Below are positions 16,940-59,397 of a stretch of 61,953 bases of DNA, in pieces. This DNA is from a virus. A program made the position numbers and the translations under genes. The notes below the pieces were generated by a model. It made no database searches. It saw only the letters and a program-made list of their open reading frames with translations, and had not been told where the DNA came from. Numbering within the stretch: the first letter of the stretch is position 1; the number at the start of each line of letters is the position of its first letter. The stretch lies in IMG/VR virus record IMGVR_UViG_3300045988_087611, one strand, 5' to 3'.

Positions 16940-16960
16940 TGATAGCGTGGAGGATTGGAT

Positions 16961-18670
16961 ATGAGCAACGAAACCACCACACCGGCCCAGCCAAGGGCCA
17001 CCACACCGGACGGCTTTAAGGTCTGGTGCAGCTTCGACGAACTCGTGGAGCTGGACAGCTTGAAGCCAAATCCCAGAAATCCCAATAAGCACCCGGTGGC
17101 CCAGCTTGAGCTCCTGGCGAATATTATCAAGAAGGGCGGCTGGCGGGAGAAGATCACCGTCAGCCGCCGCAGCGGTTTTATCGTCAAGGGACATGCCAGG
17201 CGGGAGGCCGGGAAGATGGCCGGAGGGCAGTATGCTCCCGTCGAATGGCAGGACTACGCCACCGAGGCCGACGAGATGGCCGACCTGATTGCCGATAACC
17301 GGATCGCCGAGCTGGCGGTTCTGGATGAAGAGGCCATCACCGAGCTGCTGGCCGAGCTGGAGGCCAACACCGACGGCATAGACCCGGAAATGAGCGGCTT
17401 CACCGCCGAGCAGATCAGGGAAATGGTGGAGAAGGCGCAGAAGGGGGCAGACGAGGCAGAGCAGCAGGCAGCCCGCCTCACCCTTCAGCAGAAGTTCCTG
17501 ATCCCGCCATTCACCGTCCTGGACGCCCGTGGCGGCTTCTGGTCGGAGCGGAAGAAGGCATGGAAGGCCCTGGGCATCCGCTCCGAGATGGGCCGGGGCG
17601 CCGACGACTGCAAGACCGAGGGCGGCCTTACCTTCGCCCGGAGCTCCCAGCCGCCGGCAGTCTACCAGGCCAAGAATGACTACGAGGCCAAGGTGGGCAA
17701 GAAGATCTCCTGGGAGGAGTTTGCCAACCTGTTCCCCGAGGTCATGGCCCAGGGCGGCACCTCCATTTTTGACCCGGTGCTCTGTGAGGTAGCCTATCGG
17801 TGGTTCTGCCCACAGGGCGGCTCCATCATTGACCCCTTCGCCGGCGGGAGCGTCCGGGGCATCGTGGCAGCCCTTACCGGCCGGCGCTATACCGGCGTTG
17901 ATTTATCCGGCCGGCAAATCGAGGCTAACACCCAAAATTGGGAGGAAATCTCTCACGAAAGCGTCTTAGAGGACAGTGAGTGCCCCGTAACTCCTCCCAA
18001 CTGGATCAACGGCGACAGCAGCCACATTGAAGAGCTGGCCCCGGGAGATTATGACCTATTCTTTACCTGTCCCCCCTATGCAGACCTGGAGGTTTATAGC
18101 GACAAGCCGGAAGACCTCTCCAACAAGGATTATCCGGAGTTCCTGGAGCTCTACCGGGGCATTATCCGAAAGACGGCGGCCATGCTGAAGCCAAACCGCT
18201 TCGCCTGCATCGTTGTGGGGGATGTGCGGGACAGCCGGGGCTTCTACCACAACTTCGTGAGTGACACCATCACGGCCTTCCGGGACGCCGGCATGGACTT
18301 CTACAATGAAGCCATTCTGATTATGCCTTTTGGCAGCCTGCCCATCCGGGCCGGCAAGCAGTTTGCCAGTGGCCGGAAGCTGGGCAAGGCCCACCAGAAT
18401 GTCCTTGTGTTCTGCAACGGAGACCCGGCCCAAAGTGGAGCCTTCGACCTGGAGACCCCGGAGGGGTACGCCGGGGACATTGGCCGCTATCTGGCCGCCG
18501 GCGCCGGCAAGCTGGGTCAGGAACACCAAAAGGTGCTGGTCTTCTCCAAAGGCGATCCCGCCCAGGCATCGGCCGATATTGGAGTGCCTGAGGACACGGA
18601 GGCCCTGGACAGCACCGACAACGCCCGGTTGCTGAAGGAGCTCCTGGGCAGCGACTATCCAGACGAATAA
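16961..18670 (+). CDS. ParB-like nuclease domain fused to a DNA methyltransferase
   Basis: N-terminus LKPNPRNPNKHP...GHARREA (ParB N-domain). AdoMet motif IIDPFAGGSVRG. Catalytic FTCPPY. ATG at 16961 after GGAGGA. Confidence 0.8.
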   Translation: MSNETTTPAQPRATTPDGFKVWCSFDELVELDSLKPNPRNPNKHPVAQLELLANIIKKGGWREKITVSRRSGFIVKGHARREAGKMAGGQYAPVEWQDYATEADEMADLIADNRIAELAVLDEEAITELLAELEANTDGIDPEMSGFTAEQIREMVEKAQKGADEAEQQAARLTLQQKFLIPPFTVLDARGGFWSERKKAWKALGIRSEMGRGADDCKTEGGLTFARSSQPPAVYQAKNDYEAKVGKKISWEEFANLFPEVMAQGGTSIFDPVLCEVAYRWFCPQGGSIIDPFAGGSVRGIVAALTGRRYTGVDLSGRQIEANTQNWEEISHESVLEDSECPVTPPNWINGDSSHIEELAPGDYDLFFTCPPYADLEVYSDKPEDLSNKDYPEFLELYRGIIRKTAAMLKPNRFACIVVGDVRDSRGFYHNFVSDTITAFRDAGMDFYNEAILIMPFGSLPIRAGKQFASGRKLGKAHQNVLVFCNGDPAQSGAFDLETPEGYAGDIGRYLAAGAGKLGQEHQKVLVFSKGDPAQASADIGVPEDTEALDSTDNARLLKELLGSDYPDE

Positions 18671-43116: not shown

Positions 43117-43542
43117 TTGGCCCGGGTCTTCAAGGAGCGCATGGATCGGGAGCGGAACGCCAATTCATCCCTGATTCTGGACTTTGGGGAAATACAGGGG
43201 GATTACAGCCTCCTCACGAACACCTACCCCAATCCTATCCCCAAAGGCGACTATCTCGTATGCCGTCAACTTACCATCGGCCCAACCAGCGGGCATTTGA
43301 CCTACACCATCCAGGCTGGCAAGCCCAATGACGGAACCCACAACCATGGGAGCAGCGGCACCCATGGAGGGCATACTGGCGGAGATGGCAGCCATACCCA
43401 TACCAGCGAAGGCCCCCACGTCCACGACGTTCTGATCCCCGATAAGATGCGGAAGTTGCTGCCTGGGGATCGCGTTCTCGTGGCATGGGTGCAAAATGAC
43501 GCCGTGGTGATTGACCTGGTACTCCCTGCGTCTGTGTTATGA
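43117..43542 (+). CDS. Baseplate spike-like protein (XkdR/DUF2577-like) with a His/Gly-rich tract
   Basis: Assigned by position. GTHNHGSSGTHGGHTGGDGSHTHTSEGPHVHD. The start (TTG 43117) is uncertain. Confidence 0.5.
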   Translation: MARVFKERMDRERNANSSLILDFGEIQGDYSLLTNTYPNPIPKGDYLVCRQLTIGPTSGHLTYTIQAGKPNDGTHNHGSSGTHGGHTGGDGSHTHTSEGPHVHDVLIPDKMRKLLPGDRVLVAWVQNDAVVIDLVLPASVL

Positions 43543-43555
43543 GAGGAGGAGGCCC

Positions 43556-44023
43556 GTGGCAACAACACAAAACCTCTTCCCGACCTATTCTGTCCCAACC
43601 ATTGAAACTCCGGCAGCCGCCCAGGAGCGAAAATACCGCCGGAGCCTATACTTTGACTTCGACACCGGCGACTTTCTCCAGGACGGAGCAGGAAAAATCG
43701 TGGAGGCAGATGGCCGGGAAGCCTATAAACAGTGGTGCATGAAGGTGGCTATGACCGAGCGGTTCACGCGCCTGGCTTACACCACGGACATCGGAACCGA
43801 AATGATAGACGCACTTGCCCAGGAAGACCGGGAGGCCGTCCAAAGTGCCATAGAGCGCACTATCACCGAGGCTCTGATGGTAAACCCCAAGACAGAGTAT
43901 GTCAGAGGGTTTACATTCACATGGGAAAGCGATTCCCTTTTCTGCACCTGTGTTGTGAAGGGGCAGGATTGGGAGGAGTTTTCCCTTGCAATCCCCGCCG
44001 AGGAGGTGAAAAGTATTGGATAA
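43556..44023 (+). CDS. Baseplate wedge gpW-like protein (XkdS/DUF2634-like)
   Basis: GTG at 43556 after GAGGAGGAGG. SLYFDFDTGDF pattern. Confidence 0.6.
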   Translation: MATTQNLFPTYSVPTIETPAAAQERKYRRSLYFDFDTGDFLQDGAGKIVEADGREAYKQWCMKVAMTERFTRLAYTTDIGTEMIDALAQEDREAVQSAIERTITEALMVNPKTEYVRGFTFTWESDSLFCTCVVKGQDWEEFSLAIPAEEVKSIG

Positions 44024-45170
44024 CCCCGTATTCGTTCCGCCGAGCTGGCTAAACGACCAAGACGCCGAAACCATCCACAAGCGCATGATGGAGGCGCTGC
44101 CGGCCGACATCGACGACACAGAGGGCGGCTTCCCCTGGGATATGACGATGCCAACGGCGCTGGAGAAGGCGGAAATGCTAGAGTTCCACCTTGTGGAGAC
44201 GCTGAAGCTCATGCAGCCTATGTGGGCCTATGGTGAGTGGCTGGACTATCACGCCCGCGCCGCACATGTGACCCGCCGGCCGGCAAACGCAGCTTATGGC
44301 ATCGTGACCGTGACCGGGCTGGAGGGGACGGAGATCCCCGCCGGCTTTCTTTTTGCCGTCCCGGCGGTCGGAAACTCGCCAGCAGTGGAATTTGCCACGG
44401 AGGCGACTGTCACGATTGGCGGTTCTGGAAGCGTAGATGTCGGTGTAACTGCGGTAGAGGCCGGGCCCAGCGGAAATGTACCGGCTGGAGCTATCGCCAT
44501 CATGTCCACACCCATGACAGGCATTACCGGCATTACAAACGAAGATCGCACTACCGGAGGAACCGAGGAAGAGGACGACGACACCCTCCGAGAACGTGTC
44601 AACGAAGCCAACCAGGCAGCCGAGGCCGGCTTTGTCGGATGCGATGCCGACTATATCCGCTGGGCGAAGGAAGTCGCCGGTGTGGGCACTCCCTTTGTCA
44701 TCGCCAACTGGAACCCGGATGTAAAGAACAGTGTGAAGCTGGTGATCCTGGACAGCAACGGCGACCCGGCCAACGGGAGCATTCTGGAGGCGGTGGAGAA
44801 ACACATCATGTCCCCGGACGACCGCATCAACCGGAAAGCCCCTGTGGGCGCTATCTTGACGGTGTGTGCCCCGGACATGGTGGAACTGACCTATACCCTT
44901 ACCGCGACCCTCCGGGCCGGTTATAAGGCCGCTGATGTGAAGGAGTACCTGAAGGAAGAGCTCCAAGCATACTACGTCGAGGCCAAGGAAGAAAATCTGC
45001 TCCAGTACAATCGGCTCCACGCTATCTTCACCGAAGCCCCTGGCATCTATGATTTTGCCGATTTCAAGGTCAACGGTGCTGCGAAGAACATTACCCTGGA
45101 GCAGGATGAATACCCGGAAACCGCCAGTATAGACCTCGGTCCGGAGACTGAGGAGGTGCTGGGGACGTGA
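44016..45170 (+). CDS. Baseplate J-like protein (XkdT-like)
   Basis: 384 aa. N-terminus ...DIDDTEGGFPWDMTMPTALE...YGIVTVTG is typical of the Baseplate_J family. Confidence 0.85.
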   Translation: MDNPVFVPPSWLNDQDAETIHKRMMEALPADIDDTEGGFPWDMTMPTALEKAEMLEFHLVETLKLMQPMWAYGEWLDYHARAAHVTRRPANAAYGIVTVTGLEGTEIPAGFLFAVPAVGNSPAVEFATEATVTIGGSGSVDVGVTAVEAGPSGNVPAGAIAIMSTPMTGITGITNEDRTTGGTEEEDDDTLRERVNEANQAAEAGFVGCDADYIRWAKEVAGVGTPFVIANWNPDVKNSVKLVILDSNGDPANGSILEAVEKHIMSPDDRINRKAPVGAILTVCAPDMVELTYTLTATLRAGYKAADVKEYLKEELQAYYVEAKEENLLQYNRLHAIFTEAPGIYDFADFKVNGAAKNITLEQDEYPETASIDLGPETEEVLGT

Positions 45171-45979
45171 AGCGATTCGAGCGCATCGACTTAGAGCATT
45201 TTCCGACCTGTGAAACATCGAAGAGGATGCTCGCTCGTGTGTCACCTATCTATGAACGCTCCTATGTTGGAAAATGGCTTTATCAGGTAATGGGGCTGGA
45301 GATGGAAGATGCCAGGAGGCTCTTTGATGAGCTGCGGCAACAGGCGTTTCCCGAGACGGCAACCTGGGGCCTGACCTACTGGGAGCAGCGATACGGCATC
45401 ACTCCCAACCCGGCAGACGACCTGGAAGCCCGGCGTCAGGCCGTCCTTGATCGCCAGAACGCCAGATCCCCAATGAACCCCGCCCGCATCGAGGCTATCA
45501 TCAACGGCATGACAGGGATGCCGGTCACAGTCACAGAAAATGTGGCTGATTACACCTTTGGAGTAAGGATCGAGAATACCGGGGATGGGAGCGTGGATAT
45601 TCCGGCCGTAATGGTACGGCTCCGAAAAATCAAGCCGTCTCATCAGTGGTTTGAGCTGGATATTGGGCACTCGGTTATTTTTGAGAATAACCCGGGTGCC
45701 TTTATATTTTCAGAATTCCAGGCCCGATATGCTTTTTCCAACGCCCGGGGCGGAAACCTGGTGTTCCTGGACGGCTCAAAACAGTTGGACGGTTCCTGGA
45801 AGCTCAACCAGACCTTCTATGGCGTGACCTTCCCGCTCTTCACCGTGGCCTCCGCTTTCGAGAACGAGGAGAGGCTGACGGCCAGAATGACACTGGACAC
45901 CTGGTATGAGCTCGACGGCACCGTCCGGTTGGACGGGAGCCGGAAGCTCAACGCACAAATCACAGAGGAGGAAATCTGA
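45167..45979 (+). CDS. Tail protein of the XkdU/YmfQ (DUF2313) family
   Basis: GTGA overlap start. ...GLTYWEQRYGI... motif. Confidence 0.65.
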   Translation: MKRFERIDLEHFPTCETSKRMLARVSPIYERSYVGKWLYQVMGLEMEDARRLFDELRQQAFPETATWGLTYWEQRYGITPNPADDLEARRQAVLDRQNARSPMNPARIEAIINGMTGMPVTVTENVADYTFGVRIENTGDGSVDIPAVMVRLRKIKPSHQWFELDIGHSVIFENNPGAFIFSEFQARYAFSNARGGNLVFLDGSKQLDGSWKLNQTFYGVTFPLFTVASAFENEERLTARMTLDTWYELDGTVRLDGSRKLNAQITEEEI

Positions 45980-46374
45980 TGGCAGGAAATACCGAAAACA
46001 GCATCATCACCAAAATCCGCCGTGTCAAGACGTGTAAGGCGTCCCGGGGGGCCATTGAAACCCTCCCCCCGGTTACCCACATTGTATTCGGCGACCAGGG
46101 CGTGGACGAGGGCGGGGAACCCATCCCGCCTACCGAGGAGCAGAATGCCCTCAAGCACCAGATTGCCAAATACCCTATCGGCAGTGTATCGAACCCGGTG
46201 GAGACCACCAACCGATATTCCGTCACCATCCCGGAAACCGAGCTGACCGGCGAGAGCATCAGCGAGGCGGCTCTGATGGACAGCGAAGGAGACCTGGTGG
46301 CGATCAAGACCATGTACGCAAAAAAGAAGGACGCCGGTGCGGCGTTTACCTTCGTCTTCGATGACGAATTCTAA
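45979..46374 (+). CDS. Tail-fibre collar/adaptor protein
   Basis: 131 aa. THIVFGDQGVDEGGEPIPPTEEQNALKHQI resembles tail-collar N-terminal domains. Confidence 0.45.
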   Translation: MAGNTENSIITKIRRVKTCKASRGAIETLPPVTHIVFGDQGVDEGGEPIPPTEEQNALKHQIAKYPIGSVSNPVETTNRYSVTIPETELTGESISEAALMDSEGDLVAIKTMYAKKKDAGAAFTFVFDDEF

Positions 46375-46382
46375 GGAGGGTC

Positions 46383-48794
46383 ATGGATATGGCAGATACG
46401 AATTATCCCATCCCGGAGCAGCCGGTCTACAATCCCAATATCCGCGCCCTTCAGGACAGCGACCCGGCCCGGGCATCCACAGTGTTTAATCCGCTTTTTG
46501 AGCGTCTTATCGAAAACACTCATGCGGTAAAAAAGGCCGCAGACGCTGCACAGGCAGCCGCAGAGGCGGCCGGGGAAAGCGCCAGGGGCGCTATCCCTGC
46601 TGCACAGAAAGGGGCCCCTGGCGGGCTTGCGGAGCTGGACGGGAGCGGGCATGTACCTTCTTCCCAGCTCCCAAGCTATGTGGACGATGTGGTGGATGGT
46701 TATTACCATGAAGGGGCCTTCTATTCAGACCTGGAACATGAGCATCAGATTTCTCCGGAGACCGGAAAAATCTATGTGGATGTGCAGAGTAATATCACCT
46801 ACCGGTGGAGCGGCTCTGTCTATGTGGCTATCGGCTCCGACCTGGCCCTGGGCGAAACATCCAGCACCGCCTATCGAGGCGACCGAGGTAAAGCAGCCTA
46901 TGACCACAGCCAGATCAAGACGGGCAATCCTCATGGCACCAAGGCTGCTGACATCCACTACACAGACAACAAGGATCTGGGTTCGACCAATCTTCAGGGG
47001 GCCATAGATGCGGCCGCACAGAAGGCCATCGACGCGCAGACTTCTGCCGATGCGGCGCTGGAGGCGATTACGGCACTGGCCCATACCATTGATGCCATTC
47101 CATCCCAGAGCGGCAGTCTCACCTATACAGGAAGCCCGCAGAGCCCGTCCTGGAACAGCTACAACCCGGAAACCCTTACCCTGGGCGGACAGACCTCCGG
47201 GACAAATGCCGGCGAGTATCAGGCCACGTTTACACCCAAGGAGGGGTACACCTGGGCCGGCGGCGGAAATGAAGCCAAGACTGTCACCTGGCGCATTGGC
47301 CGGGCCTCGATTGCGGCTGTTCCCACCCAGAGCGGAAGCCTGACTTTTACGGGGCTTTCGCAGAGCCCGTCCTGGAATGGCTATGATACCGGGAAACTCG
47401 CCATTGGCGGGGAGCAGAGCGCCATCAATGCTGGCAGTCACACCGCCACGTTCACCCCGACGGCCAACTATCAGTGGAACGACGGCGGAACGGGTGCCAA
47501 GGAGGCAGTTTGGAGTATCGGCAGAGCGACCATCAGCACAGTGCCCAGCCAGAGCGGGAGCCTGACCTACACGGGATCGGCCCAGACACCCAGCTGGAGC
47601 AACTACAACACGGCGCAGCTGACCATCGGCGGGGACACCAGCGGAACCAATGCCGGCAGCTATACAGCCACCTTCACCCCGACGAGCAATTATCAGTGGG
47701 ACAACGGCAGCACCGCCGCCAAGAGCGTGAGCTGGAGCATTGGGAAGGCCGCCGGAAGCCTGACGCTGAACCCGACGAGCATGACCCTCACCAACGCCAC
47801 TAAGACGGGCTCCATCACCGTCACAAGAGCCGGAGACGGGGCCATTACCGCGCAGTCCAACGCCACCGGCGTGGCCACCGTGAGCGTGAGCGGCAACACC
47901 GTCACCGTGACCGGCGTGGCCTACGGCACGGCCACCATCACCGTGAAGGTTGCGGCCGGCACCAACCACAACGCCCCCGCCGACAAGACGTGTACGGTGA
48001 AGGTGAACGTCTTCAGCACCACCCTGAACTCCAACACCTGGGCCGCCATCAAGGCCGCCAGCGACGCCGGAAACGCGGCCAGCGTGTGGAGCGTGGGAGA
48101 CACCAAGAATATCAAGATCAACGGCAAGGTGGGCAACTTCACCTTCAGCAATCTATCCATCGACGCCTTCATCGTGGGCTTTAACCACAATAGCGCCAAG
48201 GAGGGCAGCAACCGCATTCACTTTGCCCTTGGGAAGATCGGCGGGCATCTGGTGGCTCTCTGCGACAGCAGTTACAGCAACGAGCAGACCACCACCGGCT
48301 ACTTCAACATGAACACCAGCCGTACCAACGCAGGCGGGTGGAACGCTACCTATATGCGGAAGACTTTGCTGGGTAACAGCGGCACCCCCAGCAGCCCGCC
48401 GGCAAACTCCCTGCTGGCCGCCCTCCCGGCTGACCTCCGGGCGGTGATGAAGTCGGTGACCAAGTACACGGATAACACGGGCAACAGCAATTCTTCCGGG
48501 GCTGTGACTGCTACCACGGACTGGCTGTGGCTCTTTGCGGAGTTTGAGGTGCAGGGCAGCCGGAATTATGCTAACCAGTACGAGCAGAACAGCCAGAAGC
48601 AGTATGACTACTGGAAATCCGGAAACCCGAAGGTAGCGTACAAGCATTCGTCGACCGGCGCGGCCGTGTGGTGGTGGCGGCGCTCGCCTCTTTACAGCAA
48701 CAGCGCTCACTTCTGCTATACCCGCGCCGACGGCTCCAGCAGCTATGACTCTGCTTCCTGGTCGGCCGGCGTCGTGGCCGGCTTTGCTGCCTAA
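46383..48794 (+). CDS. Tail fibre; DGR target protein with a C-terminal variable region
   Basis: 803 aa. Three 74-aa tandem Ig-like repeats and a BIG2-like domain. The C-terminus contains the VR, homologous to the TR 1065 nt downstream. Confidence 0.85.
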   Translation: MDMADTNYPIPEQPVYNPNIRALQDSDPARASTVFNPLFERLIENTHAVKKAADAAQAAAEAAGESARGAIPAAQKGAPGGLAELDGSGHVPSSQLPSYVDDVVDGYYHEGAFYSDLEHEHQISPETGKIYVDVQSNITYRWSGSVYVAIGSDLALGETSSTAYRGDRGKAAYDHSQIKTGNPHGTKAADIHYTDNKDLGSTNLQGAIDAAAQKAIDAQTSADAALEAITALAHTIDAIPSQSGSLTYTGSPQSPSWNSYNPETLTLGGQTSGTNAGEYQATFTPKEGYTWAGGGNEAKTVTWRIGRASIAAVPTQSGSLTFTGLSQSPSWNGYDTGKLAIGGEQSAINAGSHTATFTPTANYQWNDGGTGAKEAVWSIGRATISTVPSQSGSLTYTGSAQTPSWSNYNTAQLTIGGDTSGTNAGSYTATFTPTSNYQWDNGSTAAKSVSWSIGKAAGSLTLNPTSMTLTNATKTGSITVTRAGDGAITAQSNATGVATVSVSGNTVTVTGVAYGTATITVKVAAGTNHNAPADKTCTVKVNVFSTTLNSNTWAAIKAASDAGNAASVWSVGDTKNIKINGKVGNFTFSNLSIDAFIVGFNHNSAKEGSNRIHFALGKIGGHLVALCDSSYSNEQTTTGYFNMNTSRTNAGGWNATYMRKTLLGNSGTPSSPPANSLLAALPADLRAVMKSVTKYTDNTGNSNSSGAVTATTDWLWLFAEFEVQGSRNYANQYEQNSQKQYDYWKSGNPKVAYKHSSTGAAVWWWRRSPLYSNSAHFCYTRADGSSSYDSASWSAGVVAGFAA
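47097..47762 (+). repeat. Three in-frame tandem 222-nt repeats inside the tail-fibre gene
   Basis: Units start at 47097, 47319 and 47541 ((I/V)P(S/T)QSGSLT(Y/F)TG...W(R/S)IG(R/K)A). Confidence 0.85.
48662..48785 (+). repeat. DGR variable region (VR)
   Basis: A 124-nt alignment to 49727-49850 has 18 mismatches. Every mismatch falls at a TR adenine. Confidence 0.9.
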
Positions 48795-48822
48795 TCCTCC
48801 GCAGAGCTATCCAGTCCCCATC

Positions 48823-48842
48823 CCGCCCCCGAAAGGGGGCGG
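48823..48842 (+). terminator. GC hairpin after the target gene
   Basis: CCGCCCCC-GAAA-GGGGGCGG. No U-tract follows. Confidence 0.4.
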
Positions 48843-48906
48843 TCCCCCGACAGGAGCACCAGCTCCGCGAAGGAAAACAGAATATAATCGGCGCGTAAGC
48901 GCCGAC

Positions 48907-48935
48907 GCGATTTTTTGAAAATCGCCTTTTTCTGT
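48907..48935 (+). terminator. Rho-independent terminator
   Basis: GCGATTTT-ttg-AAAATCGC followed by CTTTTTCTGTTTT. It is preceded by a second hairpin TCGGCGC-GTAA-GCGCCGA (48888-48905). Confidence 0.6.
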
Positions 48936-49024
48936 TTTGCTATCACTTACCTGTCTTTTGAGTGCATACAGACAGAGAAAAACGCCATAAAATAGCCCTA
49001 TGCCAATAAGTCTGGGGGTATTTC

Positions 49025-49207
49025 ATGGCTACCAACAAAAGGGTGTTCACGCTTCGGCTTTCCGATGAAGTATTTGATAAAATCGGAGCTCTGGCGACAA
49101 ATGAGCACCGCTCTATCACAAATTACATCGAATATGTCCTTATCCGGCATCTGGAGGAGGTGGAGAGAGAGCAAGGGCCCATCAAAATTGAAAAAATAGA
49201 GGAGTAG
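49025..49207 (+). CDS. Arc-type ribbon-helix-helix protein inside the DGR cassette
   Basis: KRVFTLRLSDEVFDKIGALATNEHRSITNYIEYVLIRHL is a strand-helix-helix. Confidence 0.6.
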   Translation: MATNKRVFTLRLSDEVFDKIGALATNEHRSITNYIEYVLIRHLEEVEREQGPIKIEKIEE

Positions 49208-49209
49208 CT

Positions 49210-49668
49210 ATGTCGGTACTCAAATCCAAGCGCAGCACGAGCAAGGCCGAGTTCGTCAATGTTGCCAGTCAAATCTATGATGAGACCATAGATTTCCTGT
49301 CCAGGCTCTCGGCCCGGTATTCCCGCCTAATGGCCGAGGCTATTGCCGATCTGGCCGGAGAGGTCGAAGACCATGCCGAAAAGGCCAACAGCATCTATCC
49401 CTCCGATGCCCAGCGGGTGGAGCTCCGCAAGGCGCATCTCCTGGAAGCGCGGGCCGCTCTCATGGCCCTAGATGTTCGCCTCAATAAGTGCTACCGCTTG
49501 ATGAACAAGAACCCCCAGGGGTGTTTCACGGACGCCAAGGGCAAGACCCTTCCGCCGGCGGAGGCCACGGCCAAGCTGGACAGGATGGCGGACAGCCTGG
49601 GCGAGCTGATCGACCGAGAGAACGAGCTGCTGAAGGGGCAGCTCAAAAGTATGAGCCAGAAGAAGTAG
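49210..49668 (+). CDS. avd: Accessory variability determinant (Avd)-like helical protein
   Basis: 152-aa basic, predicted all-helical protein immediately upstream of the TR, as in the BPP-1 layout. Assigned by position and composition only. Confidence 0.55.
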   Translation: MSVLKSKRSTSKAEFVNVASQIYDETIDFLSRLSARYSRLMAEAIADLAGEVEDHAEKANSIYPSDAQRVELRKAHLLEARAALMALDVRLNKCYRLMNKNPQGCFTDAKGKTLPPAEATAKLDRMADSLGELIDRENELLKGQLKSMSQKK

Positions 49669-49726
49669 CTTCTGGACAGATTGGGTGCATTTCTGAATAT
49701 CCCGCGTCCGGTGTTTCGGCCCTTCG

Positions 49727-49850
49727 GGCCGTGTGGTGGTGGCGGCGCTCGCCTAATTACAACAACAACGAAAACTTCTGCAATACCAACACCGACGGCT
49801 CCAACAACAATAACAATGCTTCCTGGTCGGCCGGCGTCGTGGCCGGATTT
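49727..49850 (+). ncRNA. DGR template repeat (TR)
   Basis: Adenine-rich copy of the VR. Read in the VR frame it gives PNYNNNENFCNTNTDGSNNNNNAS (AAY codons). It is non-coding. Confidence 0.9.
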
Positions 49851-50069
49851 TGCGTTGCGGGGTCACATGGAGTAGCGAGAGTGAAAGACGACCCACGCAA
49901 AAGGAGAAATGCTTCCCTGGGTGCAAATCCCTAAAACTGCCCTCTGATGCCCTTGCACGGACGCTGCTTGCATGGCGGGGCGATATGCCTATCCCCGTTT
50001 CATGTGCCGGGGCAAAGCAGATTAGACGGCATCCTACACCACATCTGTACGGAGGTGCGAATAACTATT
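49851..50069 (+). ncRNA. TR-RT spacer, likely structured part of the DGR RNA
   Basis: Bulged 9-bp stem across 49856-49899 and hairpin CGGGG-N12-CCCCG at ~49975-49996. No plausible ORF. Confidence 0.45.
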
Positions 50070-51245
50070 ATGACAAGCGAGCAGCGCCGAGAGGCGCGAT
50101 ACCAGCGAAGGAAAGCAAAGCGGCAGGCACGTCGGATCGCCCGGAGCGCGGCGGTCGGTGGTCTCCAGGATGTCTTTACCTACCGGAAGATGTTCTTCTA
50201 TGGGCTGAAATGCTGTAACGGGGTGCGCTGGAAGCAGAGCACCCAAAACTTTGAAAACCATCTGTTCTCCGGGACAGCCCGCCGGAGGCGGGAAATCCTG
50301 TCTGGAACATGGAAACCCATGAAGTGCAGCCATTTCACCCTGCGGGAACGTGGCAAGGTGCGGCCCATCGACGCCCCACATATCACAGACCGACAAATCC
50401 ACAAAGTTCTGTGCAACGAAGTTCTGATACCTCTCTATGGCCCCAGCATGATCTATGACAACGGGGCTTCTCAAAAGAAGAAGGGCCTGCATTGGGCCTA
50501 TGATCGCCTGGCGGAGCAGCTTCGGTGGCATTACCGAAGATTCGGCCGGGCCGGTGGAGTGTTCCTCCTAGACCTGAAGGGGTTTTTTCCAAATGCCCCG
50601 CACCCGGCGCTCTATGAACGGCATCGGCAATTCATCCTCGACCCTGGAGTTCGGGCCCTGGCAGACAAGATCATCGCCACCTCCCCGTGCCCTGTGCCTG
50701 GGCGTGGGATGCCTCTCGGCGTGGAACCGTCCCAGCAGGAAATGGTTGCGCTCCCCAGCAGCATTGACAACTGGATCAAGTGCCAGGCCGGCGTCCATGT
50801 GGCCGGCCATTACATGGATGATTACTATATCGTCCTGCCGGACATTGAGGAACTGAAGAAGCTGGCCCGGGAGGTTGTGCGCCGGTTTGAGGCTATGGGC
50901 ATTCGGGTAAACAAGAAGAAATGCAAGATTATCCCGCTCACCAAGCCCTTCCGTTTCTGCAAGGTGCGCTACACCATGACGGAGAGCGGTCACATCAAGA
51001 AAAATGGTTGCCGGGACGGCATCAAGCGGAGCCGACGGAAGCTCAAATTTTTCCAGAGAGAGGTTTCCGCCGGACGGCGCACACTGGCCGATGTCGCCGA
51101 GTTCATGCAATCCCAGCGATCCTATTACAACAACTTTGACGATCATGGGCGGCTGCTCCGCCTGGAGCGGCTGTCCTACGCCATTTTTGGAGGTGCTTTA
51201 TGTTCAAAATCATCAAAGCCAGCAGCGGGGAAAGCCTCGGAATGA
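50070..51245 (+). CDS. DGR reverse transcriptase
   Basis: ATG at 50070 inside ORF 49947..51245. Motifs LGVEPSQ ((I/L)GxxxSQ, the DGR hallmark) and HYMDDYYIV (YxDD). Confidence 0.9.
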   Translation: MTSEQRREARYQRRKAKRQARRIARSAAVGGLQDVFTYRKMFFYGLKCCNGVRWKQSTQNFENHLFSGTARRRREILSGTWKPMKCSHFTLRERGKVRPIDAPHITDRQIHKVLCNEVLIPLYGPSMIYDNGASQKKKGLHWAYDRLAEQLRWHYRRFGRAGGVFLLDLKGFFPNAPHPALYERHRQFILDPGVRALADKIIATSPCPVPGRGMPLGVEPSQQEMVALPSSIDNWIKCQAGVHVAGHYMDDYYIVLPDIEELKKLAREVVRRFEAMGIRVNKKKCKIIPLTKPFRFCKVRYTMTESGHIKKNGCRDGIKRSRRKLKFFQREVSAGRRTLADVAEFMQSQRSYYNNFDDHGRLLRLERLSYAIFGGALCSKSSKPAAGKASE

Positions 51246-51889
51246 CCGAGGCCCCAACCTATATCAAAAAAGCAGACAACGGCTGCTACAACCTGTGCCC
51301 GGAGCCTTCGGAGGCTCCGGGCATTGTTTATGGCGGCGTGGTGTACCATCTGCTCGGTCGGCCGGAGTTGGATGGAGCGGAGGACACCGTGGCCTTGGAG
51401 GAAACGGACGCCGGCGTAGAGCTGGCCGAGGCCAAGGACGCCACAGCCCGCTCCGCCAAAATGGCCGGTCAGATGCAAGTGGCCGCGAAGCTGTATGTGC
51501 AGGCATCCACCAGCATCACAGATGCCCAGGCCCTGGAGATGCCAGACCTATTCCTCACCTGGGCCGAAGTGCTGGCCGTCGGCACCCAGCTTTCCAAGGA
51601 CACCATCATCAACGACGGAAACCAGCTCTACCGGGTGGTGCAGCCGGTGACGCCACAGGAACACCAGGCACCCCACGACGAGGGGATGCTGGCAATCTAC
51701 CGACCTATTGATACCGCCCACGCCGGCACAAAAGAAGATCCCATTCCCTTCGTCTACGGGATGGATACGGAGCAGGGCAAGTATTACAGCTCCGGCGGCA
51801 AGACCTACCTCTGCAACCTCACCATGACCCCCTGTGTGTGGCCTCCGGAAACTCCGGGCCTGTGGCAGTGGTCGGAGGTGACGGAATAA
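51200..51889 (+). CDS. Tail-fibre-associated protein with a possible CBM5/12-like C-terminus
   Basis: 229 aa. Overlaps the RT 3' end by 46 nt. C-terminus GKYYSSGGKTYLCNLTMTPCVWPPETPGLWQW. Confidence 0.4.
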   Translation: MFKIIKASSGESLGMTEAPTYIKKADNGCYNLCPEPSEAPGIVYGGVVYHLLGRPELDGAEDTVALEETDAGVELAEAKDATARSAKMAGQMQVAAKLYVQASTSITDAQALEMPDLFLTWAEVLAVGTQLSKDTIINDGNQLYRVVQPVTPQEHQAPHDEGMLAIYRPIDTAHAGTKEDPIPFVYGMDTEQGKYYSSGGKTYLCNLTMTPCVWPPETPGLWQWSEVTE

Positions 51890-58449: not shown

Positions 58450-58464
58450 AAGGAGAAGTTGAAC

Positions 58465-59397
58465 ATGGATATGTTGAGAGATCGGATCGCCGGCGCCCTC
58501 TACGGGGTAGCCGTAGGGGATGCCCTGGGCGGGCCCCTGGAGTTTATGAGCGCAGCAGAAATCAACCGTCAACATGGGTGGGTTTCCACCATGCTGGGCG
58601 GTGGTTGGTTGGGTCTGCGCCCTGGTGAGACCACAGACGACACCGCCATGACACTAGCCGTGGCTGAAGGAATTATGGAGCGCCCAGAGGCCCCAATCCA
58701 GGACATCGGCCGCCGGTTTATCCGGTGGGCAGAAAGTGGCCCAAAGGACATCGGTGGAGCCTGTGCATGGAGCATCAGGAATGCAAAACGGATTGGAGGC
58801 GGGGCGCCGACCACCGAAGACTGGGAAAATGCCGCAGCGGCATACCAGTTACAGGTCGCCGCTCCTGTCGAGGGAAACGGAGCTCTCATGCGAACGATTT
58901 ACCCCGCTTTGTACTATCCCAATCACTCAAAGGCCGAGTATTGGGCCATGAAAATCGCTAGAATGACCCACGCCGGCCTCCGTTCTACCGAGGCTTGCAT
59001 TTTATATTCCCGCATGGTAAACTTAATAACAGCATCGAAAAGTCAACAGCAGGCCTCCCGGGAATTTCTGAAGGAACACTGCGAAGCCGTCAAGGAATAT
59101 CGGGACGCAGCCTCCGGAAAAGAAGTTGCTCCCGCTGGCGGCGGTTGGGTTGTGGACAGTATGAGGATCGCCGTCGGTAGCACGGCGAATACATCATCTT
59201 TCCGGGAAGCCGTCACCATGGCCGTGAACCTCGGCGGAGACGCCGACACCAATGGAGCCATCACCGGAGGCCTGGCCGGCGCCCTGTACGGTTTTCAGAC
59301 CATCCCCAAGGAATGGGTATCCGCTCTATCCACGCACGATAGGGAGCGCCTGGACGCCGCTGTGGACGCTGCGATGGAGAGCCGAATGACTAAATAG
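58465..59397 (+). CDS. ADP-ribosylglycohydrolase (DraG/ARH family)
   Basis: GALYGVAVGDALGGPLEF, TTDDTAMTLA, GNGALMR and GGDADTNGAITGGLAGALYG. ATG at 58465 after AAAGGAG. Confidence 0.88.
   Translation: MDMLRDRIAGALYGVAVGDALGGPLEFMSAAEINRQHGWVSTMLGGGWLGLRPGETTDDTAMTLAVAEGIMERPEAPIQDIGRRFIRWAESGPKDIGGACAWSIRNAKRIGGGAPTTEDWENAAAAYQLQVAAPVEGNGALMRTIYPALYYPNHSKAEYWAMKIARMTHAGLRSTEACILYSRMVNLITASKSQQQASREFLKEHCEAVKEYRDAASGKEVAPAGGGWVVDSMRIAVGSTANTSSFREAVTMAVNLGGDADTNGAITGGLAGALYGFQTIPKEWVSALSTHDRERLDAAVDAAMESRMTK

Follow-up and report, generated by a model that had tools for sequence, protein, structure and literature searches.

Does the stretch downstream of the baseplate genes of a gut phage hold a complete diversity-generating retroelement (DGR), and is that element still at work? 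The question is raised by positions 46383-51245 of a 61,953-nt piece of viral DNA (IMG/VR record IMGVR_UViG_3300045988_087611; the whole piece is referred to here as the window), for which a first-pass annotation, made from the sequence alone, had claimed a complete DGR aimed at the C-terminus of a tail-fiber gene. We are highly confident that 46383-51245 is a complete, currently active DGR in a temperate, contractile-tailed prophage of human-gut Oscillospiraceae, and every component that had been named is present. The elements that carry this reading are the following.

46383..48794, + strand: DGR target gene (803 aa), probable tail fiber or receptor-binding protein, with the variable region (VR) in its C-terminal DUF6273 domain
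48662..48785, + strand: VR, the full stretch homologous to the template region (TR), from an ungapped alignment to 49727-49850
48690..48751, + strand: mutagenized core of the VR, encoding target residues 770-790, with 17 A-to-N differences from the TR
48752..48785, + strand: GC-rich, invariant 3' end of the VR, resembling an initiation of mutagenic homing (IMH) sequence, with zero differences in any VR copy
49727..49850, + strand: TR, taken as non-coding and spanned solely by a mechanical open reading frame (ORF) that overlaps the accessory gene
50070..51245, + strand: intact DGR reverse transcriptase (RT; 391 aa), Pfam RVT_1 E 6e-15, with LGVEPSQ and YMDD motifs

The repeat pair and its variation among phage copies

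Realignment of the VR with the TR reproduced what had been claimed for the pair, namely 124 nt without gaps at an offset of 1065 nt with 18 mismatches, each of them opposite a TR adenine (18 of 18, with 31 adenines in the 124-nt TR) and none at any other base. If mismatch positions are taken as random, the probability that all fall on adenines is ~1e-13 for the 124 nt, and 6e-13 for a 120-nt core (49727-49846) with 17 mismatches and 30 adenines. The eighteenth mismatch, C at 48782 of the VR and A at 49847 of the TR, is of another kind. It recurs unchanged in all the VR copies examined, as well as in Faecalibacterium phage Pioen, and the junction at which it stands (CCGG followed by CTTT in the VR and by ATTTT in the TR) is kept in all relatives, just past a 30-nt GC-rich block (48752-48781) in which VR and TR are the same in all copies. 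Because this mismatch is fixed in all copies, and because it lies where the likeness of VR and TR ends, it is the IMH/IMH* boundary and not a mutagenesis event; the count of 18 and its restriction to adenines thus stand, and 17 mismatches reflect mutagenesis.

A scan with the TR on both strands, ignoring the A positions, found a single VR in the window. The VR stops 9 nt short of the target gene's stop codon, and the TR lies 219 nt upstream of the RT start. The 17 substitutions in the VR core comprise seven to G, five to C, and five to T, and codon positions 1 and 2 of the VR frame hold 29 of the 30 adenines of the 120-nt TR core. Read in that frame, the TR contains 12 AAY codons, and the translations quoted in the first-pass annotation were correct on recheck (VR, ...PLYSNSAHFCYTRADGSSSYDSAS...; TR, ...PNYNNNENFCNTNTDGSNNNNNAS...). 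Substitution of A in the TR yields no stop at any codon, and the peptides reachable over residues 770-790 (21 residues, 17 mutable codons) number ~1.7e17 as an upper figure.

The most direct evidence on activity comes from an exact look-up of the RT protein in a contig collection, whose index lists the identical RT in 421 blocks. We compared the window with six metagenome contigs from different samples, each covering VR and TR and each encoding an RT with an amino acid sequence identical to that of the window. Outside the VR core, these contigs differ from the window at 0-2 positions in ~6,114 aligned bases (4,712 in the contig L094), so that the seven assemblies are otherwise 99.97-100% identical; inside the 62-nt VR core, they differ from it at 11-21 bases. 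In all 21 pairwise comparisons of the seven VRs, the differences fall solely at positions of TR adenines (non-A differences, 0), and the TR is identical throughout, save for a single A-to-C change in one contig. Across nine VRs, 29 of the 30 core-region adenines are substituted at least once. A further relative, L008, differs from the window at 5 of 1,176 nt in the RT gene, at none in the TR and spacer, and at 13 of 62 in the VR core, all at TR adenines; free alignment revealed the same pattern in L010. Mismatches pooled over ~50 related cassettes number 570 at A, 10 at G, 4 at C, and 2 at T. Adenine specificity was judged here by searches with the IMH-like block, by free alignments, and by the exact-RT look-up, not by a pattern scan that fixes the non-A positions. 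Scans of genomes and metagenomes gave VRs that were truncated (L004 and L006) or none (L005).

The DGR is thus active in nature: 0-2 flanking differences as against 11-21 in the VR, always at TR adenines, are the signature of ongoing mutagenic retrohoming, and the VR heterogeneity limited to TR-A positions that the first-pass annotation had proposed to look for is present across seven otherwise near-identical assemblies. As a separate observation, the TR change lies in L094 (TR at 2158-2281), at the site matching window position 49782, in a contig with an identical RT; one mutable position would therefore be lost there.

We consider it very improbable that the element is a fossil, with repeats and an RT that survive as relics and VR differences inherited from long ago. 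The RT ORF is undamaged, and its protein recurs unchanged in many samples; there is visible constraint on the TR, the spacer RNA, the hairpin, and the accessory gene (see below); and 11-21 differences in 62 nt as against 0-2 in ~6.1 kb cannot be old divergence. What speaks for a fossil is that the VR diversification is known from comparisons between the assemblies of different samples and not from reads within a single sample, and that one contig, L090, has its accessory gene (1642-2099) called as two ORFs of 96 and 55 aa, with two gap positions relative to the window. The RT of L090 is identical and its VR is diversified despite the split, which is due to misassembly or else to a recent inactivation.

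Less probable still is that the VR varies through ordinary recombination or positive selection of fiber alleles, the TR being a duplicated gene fragment. Recombination does act at this locus: the N-terminal 2.3 kb of the target gene, 5' of the VR (46383-48661), is 8.9% diverged between the window and L008, as against 0.4% for the RT gene, which indicates that the fiber shaft is probably exchanged as a mosaic besides the DGR variation. Such processes would not, however, limit differences to the adenines of a separate non-coding copy, and the absence of non-A differences from the 21 pairwise comparisons, the family-wide tally of 570 at A and 16 elsewhere, and a TR that is invariant while the VR varies all speak for mutagenic retrohoming.

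The reverse transcriptase and the RNA that precedes it

The RT probably starts at the ATG at 50070, which is preceded by GGAGG at 50051-50055, and not at the mechanical ORF start at 49947. Both motifs that had been claimed, LGVEPSQ and YMDD, lie in the RT ORF, which is intact and so combines a DGR-type (I/L/V)GxxxSQ motif 4 with a YxDD catalytic motif. The sole PDB sequence match at E≤0.001 is 8ub7_A, the BPP-1 bRT (E 2.9e-9), and in this alignment LGVEPSQ stands opposite IGSLTSQ, and YMDD opposite YMDD. Models of other RT classes stay below their cut-offs, with 50 bits for the NCBIfam group II RT/maturase (curated cut-off 300) and 21 bits for Drt3a (cut-off 200). PADLOC returned generic hits of ≤51 bits, to CRISPR-associated and defense-associated RT (DRT) models, and bRT, a confirmed DGR RT, scores higher than the window RT on the same models. 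A search of the whole window against Rfam gave RT-2 alone, with neither a group II intron nor a retron RNA. Sequence comparison therefore bears out the check that the first-pass annotation had proposed and supports an RT of the DGR type, nearest to BPP-1 bRT and not of a retron, group II, or defense class; that an RT of another class (retron, group II intron, DRT, or abortive infection) sits beside the repeat by chance, as the weak generic NCBIfam and PADLOC matches might suggest, has a very low probability given a group II score so far under its cut-off, the stronger hits of bRT on the PADLOC models, the Rfam result, the sole PDB match, and the GxxxSQ motif. The closest RTs in annotated phages are those of the Faecalibacterium phages Pioen, FP_Taranis, and Roos (68-69% identity). 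A 229-aa ORF (51200-51889, + strand; phrog_27545, function unassigned) overlaps the 3' end of the RT gene by 46 nt, and all seven contigs that the exact-RT look-up returned have it; at this place Pioen carries another gene, which is shorter.

In the interval that separates the TR from the RT gene lies a structured RNA, one part of which pairs with sequence upstream of the TR.

49858..50078, + strand: structured spacer RNA, Rfam RF03077 (RT-2), between TR and RT
49683..49694, + strand: upstream arm of a duplex (GGGUGCAUUUCU), pairing with 49905-49917
49905..49917, + strand: downstream arm of the duplex (AGAAAUGC-UU-CCC), within the spacer, pairing with 49683-49694

The match to RT-2 scores 173 bits (gathering score, 40; E 1e-41) and covers the whole model, positions 1-222 of 222. 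In a relative with flanking genes that are 10-20% diverged, the 219 nt from TR to RT are nearly invariant. Of the 42 pairs predicted by RNAalifold from an alignment of 26 relatives, 18 are compensatory. RT-2 stands at this place in each of 15 related loci (15 of 15), Pioen among them, and in 16 of 16 cassettes checked overall. A search for the Phage_DGR family, RF03022, gave no hit in the window, and none in 48600-50200 with the limit relaxed to E≤1; as a control, the TR-RT gap of BPP-1 matches RF03022 with 104.7 bits. In the paper that defined these motifs, RT-10 (now Phage_DGR) alone was tied to DGRs, and for the others such a link was speculated (Weinberg et al. 2017, PMC5737381).

The duplex is paired in 99.5% of cells in an alignment of 20 distinct sequences, with compensatory changes at 6 of 11 pairs; its covariation was reached by none of 500 shuffles, and slid registers came nowhere near. 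In the cryogenic electron microscopy structure of the BPP-1 ribonucleoprotein, the sequences flanking the TR form a duplex, which was predicted for 207 other DGRs (bioRxiv 10.1101/2023.10.23.563531). On the strength of the covariation, the TR of the window is predicted to sit in a loop closed by a long-range duplex, paralleling BPP-1. RNAduplex over-extended the pairing on long flanks and served as a pointer only. Three other candidate structures were set aside: a terminator-like hairpin in the TR end (49827-49846) that is not conserved in relatives, a local GGAG/CUUC hairpin from RNAalifold that is better explained by the long-range duplex with TR-upstream sequence, and an RNAalifold pairing of the TR end (CCGGA) with UCUG, a segment that fits better in the Rfam outer helix with the RT ribosome-binding site.

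Two further features of the spacer may be recorded. The loops of two RT-2 hairpins, at 49985-49989 and 50028-50032, are complementary (AUGCC/GGCAU), and relatives show covariation in four further classes, UGCGC/GCGCA, GGCGC/GCGCC, GUGCC/GGCAC, and GCAUC/GAUGC. A control with mismatched partners was weak, in that 39% still formed ≥5 pairs with G-U allowed; the putative contact therefore rests on the five covarying classes. This contact is unmarked in the consensus line that cmscan prints for Rfam RT-2, and the arm upstream of the TR lies outside that model. The outer helix of RT-2 (49939-49946/50050-50058), supported by covariation, pairs GCCCUCUG with CGGAGG(U)GC, the Shine-Dalgarno sequence of the RT gene; because this helix takes in the Shine-Dalgarno sequence, it suggests that RNA folding and RT translation may be coupled.

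Target, hairpin, and accessory genes

The remaining parts of the cassette and its immediate context are as follows.

45979..46374, + strand: small protein resembling a tail-fiber N-terminal (tail-collar fiber) part, context (PF12571 Phage_tail_fib, E 7.7e-6; phrog_1780, E 4e-15)
48823..48842, + strand: hairpin/cruciform predicted by DNA fold, with an 8-bp GC stem (CCGCCCCC/GGGGGCGG) and a GAAA loop
48888..48925, + strand: two terminator-like hairpins, each followed by a T-run, predicted by folding to end the target transcript
49025..49207, + strand: ribbon-helix-helix (RHH; Arc/CopG-like) gene, 60 aa, between target and accessory gene, from weak hits
49210..49668, + strand: accessory gene, 152 aa, encoding a basic protein with a predicted four-helix bundle, in the position of Avd

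Pfam places DUF6273 at residues 677-791 of the target (E 6.9e-7), the target matches phrog_37900 (E 5e-269), and its gene lies downstream of the baseplate wedge genes (43511-45979). An AlphaFold2 (AF2) model of the C-terminal 273 aa has a mean confidence (pLDDT) of 93.9. The top Foldseek hit of the DUF6273 domain model (47973-48791) is the immunoglobulin A (IgA) peptidase of Thomasclavelia ramosa (9qa6, E 1.7e-7; TM-score 0.51 normalized to query length), and the model comparison suggests that this peptidase may carry a domain related to the DUF6273 target domain. The middle of the target gene (~47100-47770, + strand) contains three tandem repeats of ~74 aa each (222-nt period), followed by an immunoglobulin-like domain at residues 457-542 with a weak match to phage major tail protein V.

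The hairpin starts 37 nt past the VR, a distance kept in 37 of 38 related loci. Its stem occurs as CCGCCCCC, CCGCCCAC, CCGCCCGC, CCGCCCAT, or CCGCCAAC, each with its complement, such that the changes are compensatory, and the loops in relatives are GAAA, GCAA, GGAA, GACA, and GTCA, with TTGC once, and so mostly GNNA. Retrohoming of BPP-1 needs a hairpin/cruciform with a GC stem of 7-10 bp and a 4-nt GRNA loop, 4-34 bp after the VR (PMC3240598), and the window hairpin, as a predicted structure, fits this published type; the GCAA, GTCA, and TTGC loops of some relatives do not fit GRNA. The sequence CCGCAG just past the target stop (48795-48815) is kept in 38 related loci, as read by eye; a possible 3-bp hairpin there has no consistent pairing register across relatives.

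At the Avd position, the gene that had been described as a helical, Avd-like gene before the TR does encode a helical, basic, TR-adjacent product. Its AF2 model (pLDDT 90.4) has four long helices, and its gene lies directly 5' of the TR in 38 of 38 related cassettes, including those that lack the RHH gene. The family comprises 1,586 clusters, or 344 representatives at 50% identity, and is unannotated throughout (phrog_30516). The window protein has no match in Pfam, NCBIfam, PADLOC, or the PDB sequences. Foldseek against the PDB returned generic helical bundles for it. PDB 2gsc (Xcc0516), which we take to be a member of an Avd-related family, gave a TM-score of 0.67-0.70 normalized to target length.

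Several results weigh against the reading of 46383-51245 as a complete, active DGR, alongside the between-sample nature of the VR variation noted above. The tail-fiber label of the target is a probable one, drawn solely from gene position and weak family hits, and in Foldseek searches with the target domain C-type lectin domains scored E 3-9 and Mtd/lectin folds were not recovered. The 37-nt distance of the hairpin is slightly beyond the published 4-34 bp. None of 37 diverse members of the accessory family matches Pfam bAvd (PF22296) at E≤1, in a search where bAvd itself as a control scored 7.3e-36, and hhalign of the family with bAvd and with a 30-sequence bAvd alignment gave probabilities of 0.3-0.4%. 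Structural matches of the accessory protein to Avd-like proteins are marginal, with E 0.03-0.16 in BFVD and none below E 0.18 in the PDB.

Our best guess is that the 152-aa protein would be a strongly diverged Avd or an analogue that works like Avd. As sequence or profile likeness to bAvd is undetectable, the term Avd-like is valid for position and fold class alone, and to that extent the earlier description needs restricting. We regard it as unlikely, and yet the best placed of the alternatives, that the protein is no diverged Avd homologue at all and is an analogue, or that its gene is dispensable for retrohoming. This possibility draws on the missing sequence and profile signal to bAvd, on the commonness of four-helix bundles, and on fold matches that are all statistically marginal; it sits poorly with the position directly upstream of the TR in all 38 cassettes, even without an RHH gene between target and accessory gene, and with the structural matches, since four of the top seven BFVD hits (ranks 2, 3, 5, and 7) are named 'Avd-like protein' and 2gsc adds the TM-score given above. 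The isoelectric point (8.85 for the window protein and 8.86 +/- 0.78 for the family) is like that reported for Avd proteins (9.5 +/- 0.7) and unlike that of the acidic CH1 accessory class (4.7), and Avd genes have been described as 'very poorly conserved' (PMC5758913).

The order target-avd-TR-rt of BPP-1, which had been claimed for this cassette, holds with one addition, an extra RHH gene, to read target-RHH-accessory-TR-RT. The RHH assignment is from weak matches (Pfam RHH_7, E 0.0015, and Arc, E 0.0073; phrog_582, Arc-like repressor, E 1.6e-5). Of 38 related cassettes, 31 have the gene, at 78-100% identity, a level of conservation above that of the accessory protein and of the RT, and Pioen has a weakly RHH-like gene at the same place. 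Cassettes that lack it have a VR-TR spacing of ~800-890 nt as against ~1,050-1,140 nt. RHH is not among the accessory genes described by family (Avd, HRDC, MSL, and CH1) in a 2017 survey (PMC5758913), a comparison that did not take in PAG1-4. An inverted repeat ~50 nt 5' of the RHH start, CTGTCT (48951-48956)/AGACAG (48970-48975), is partly kept in L001 (CCTGT ... ACAGG) and could be a candidate operator. The RHH protein possibly regulates the DGR, or else may be a passenger.

Known relatives and what the element means

The phage of the window is temperate and contractile-tailed, with genes for terminase, portal, major head, sheath, tape-measure, baseplate, endolysin, and integrase proteins, and a 99% identical copy is part of a contig of 184 kb from the genome of an uncultured human-gut member of the Oscillospiraceae. 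At least 241 related RT loci are present in IMG/VR. With the cassette as query, megablast gave no match among 50,697 phage records at a sensitivity of ~85% DNA identity or more; the phage is therefore distinct from Pioen, Taranis, and Roos, and its relatives were found by protein-level search. Elsewhere in the window are a ParB-like/DNA methyltransferase fusion (16955-18670, + strand) and an ADP-ribosylglycohydrolase-like gene (58459-59397, + strand). Two related phage contigs carry ribozymes ~4 kb past the RT, a twister-sister ribozyme in L084 (9507-9586, − strand; 72.6 bits) and a type II hammerhead ribozyme in L076 (9358-9422, − strand; 39.3 bits).

With BPP-1 (mtd-avd-TR-brt), the window shares a 3'-terminal VR, an accessory gene, TR, structured spacer, and RT on one strand, adenine-specific differences, a GC-rich invariant VR end after which VR and TR diverge, an 8-bp GC hairpin with a GAAA loop, a TR-flanking duplex, and the GxxxSQ and YMDD motifs. 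It differs in that its RT is only remotely similar to bRT (E 2.9e-9), its accessory protein lacks detectable bAvd homology, its spacer is RT-2 and that of BPP-1 is Phage_DGR, its target domain is DUF6273 in place of Mtd, its hairpin lies 37 nt from the VR as against 4 bp in BPP-1, and its cassette holds an extra RHH gene. The likeness to Pioen is closer and extends to the gene order, including the weak-RHH gene and the 152-aa accessory gene, to the CCGG-C versus CCGG-A junction, and to RT-2; Pioen, Taranis, and Roos, with RTs 68-69% identical to that of the window, have hosts of the same bacterial family. DGRs of Faecalibacterium prophages, including Pioen and Roos, have been published, and for these two the VR is reported at the C-terminus of DUF6273, in a paper that leaves an accessory protein and a hairpin unmentioned (PMC11792537). 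In the 'Tentaclin' phage proteins, a DGR-diversified DUF6273 is N-terminal in some targets (PMC10743442), whereas in the window it is C-terminal in an 803-aa fiber.

What we observe is the layout of the cassette, its specificity for adenines, its RNA structures, and the diversification of the VR among otherwise identical genomes, and BPP-1 provides the analogy from which we infer cis-priming, the roles of the accessory protein and the hairpin, and the consequence for receptor binding. Transcription would yield an RNA that takes in the accessory gene's end as well as the TR and the RT-2 spacer, and this RNA would fold such that the 49683-49694/49905-49917 duplex encloses the TR and RT-2 forms a compact scaffold. 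The RT, probably together with the basic four-helix protein, would copy the TR into cDNA with random bases opposite template A, and this cDNA would replace the VR at 48690-48751 in the tail-fiber gene. The IMH-like VR end and the GAAA hairpin 37 nt downstream would mark the VR as recipient, and the resulting change in the VR presumably alters receptor specificity.

It is possible, if on balance doubtful, that the cassette represents a distinct and widespread DGR subtype of gut Clostridia phages, defined jointly by a non-bAvd four-helix protein, RT-2 RNA, and RHH control. If so, the phrog_30516 family would fill the role of Avd and would have been missed by standard Avd profiles, the so far unassigned RT-2 motif would be the scaffold and priming RNA, with a duplex around the TR, a contact between two loops, and a helix that masks the ribosome-binding site of the RT gene, and an Arc-like RHH repressor, present in 31 of 38 cassettes, would time mutagenesis.

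The lineage is already described in Faecalibacterium prophages and the DGR itself is textbook biology; the points on RT-2, the accessory family, and the RHH gene leave the understanding of DGR mechanism unchanged. Their gain is one of annotation: the Rfam motif RT-2 can be labeled a spacer RNA of DGRs, the proteins of a large 'hypothetical' family can be marked as probable DGR accessory proteins missed by Avd profiles, and a frequent cassette RHH gene becomes a candidate regulator of mutagenesis. The main value of the locus is as a clean natural example, with seven near-identical genomes that differ essentially only in a 62-nt VR core, and as an entry point to a large DGR family of human-gut Oscillospiraceae phages.

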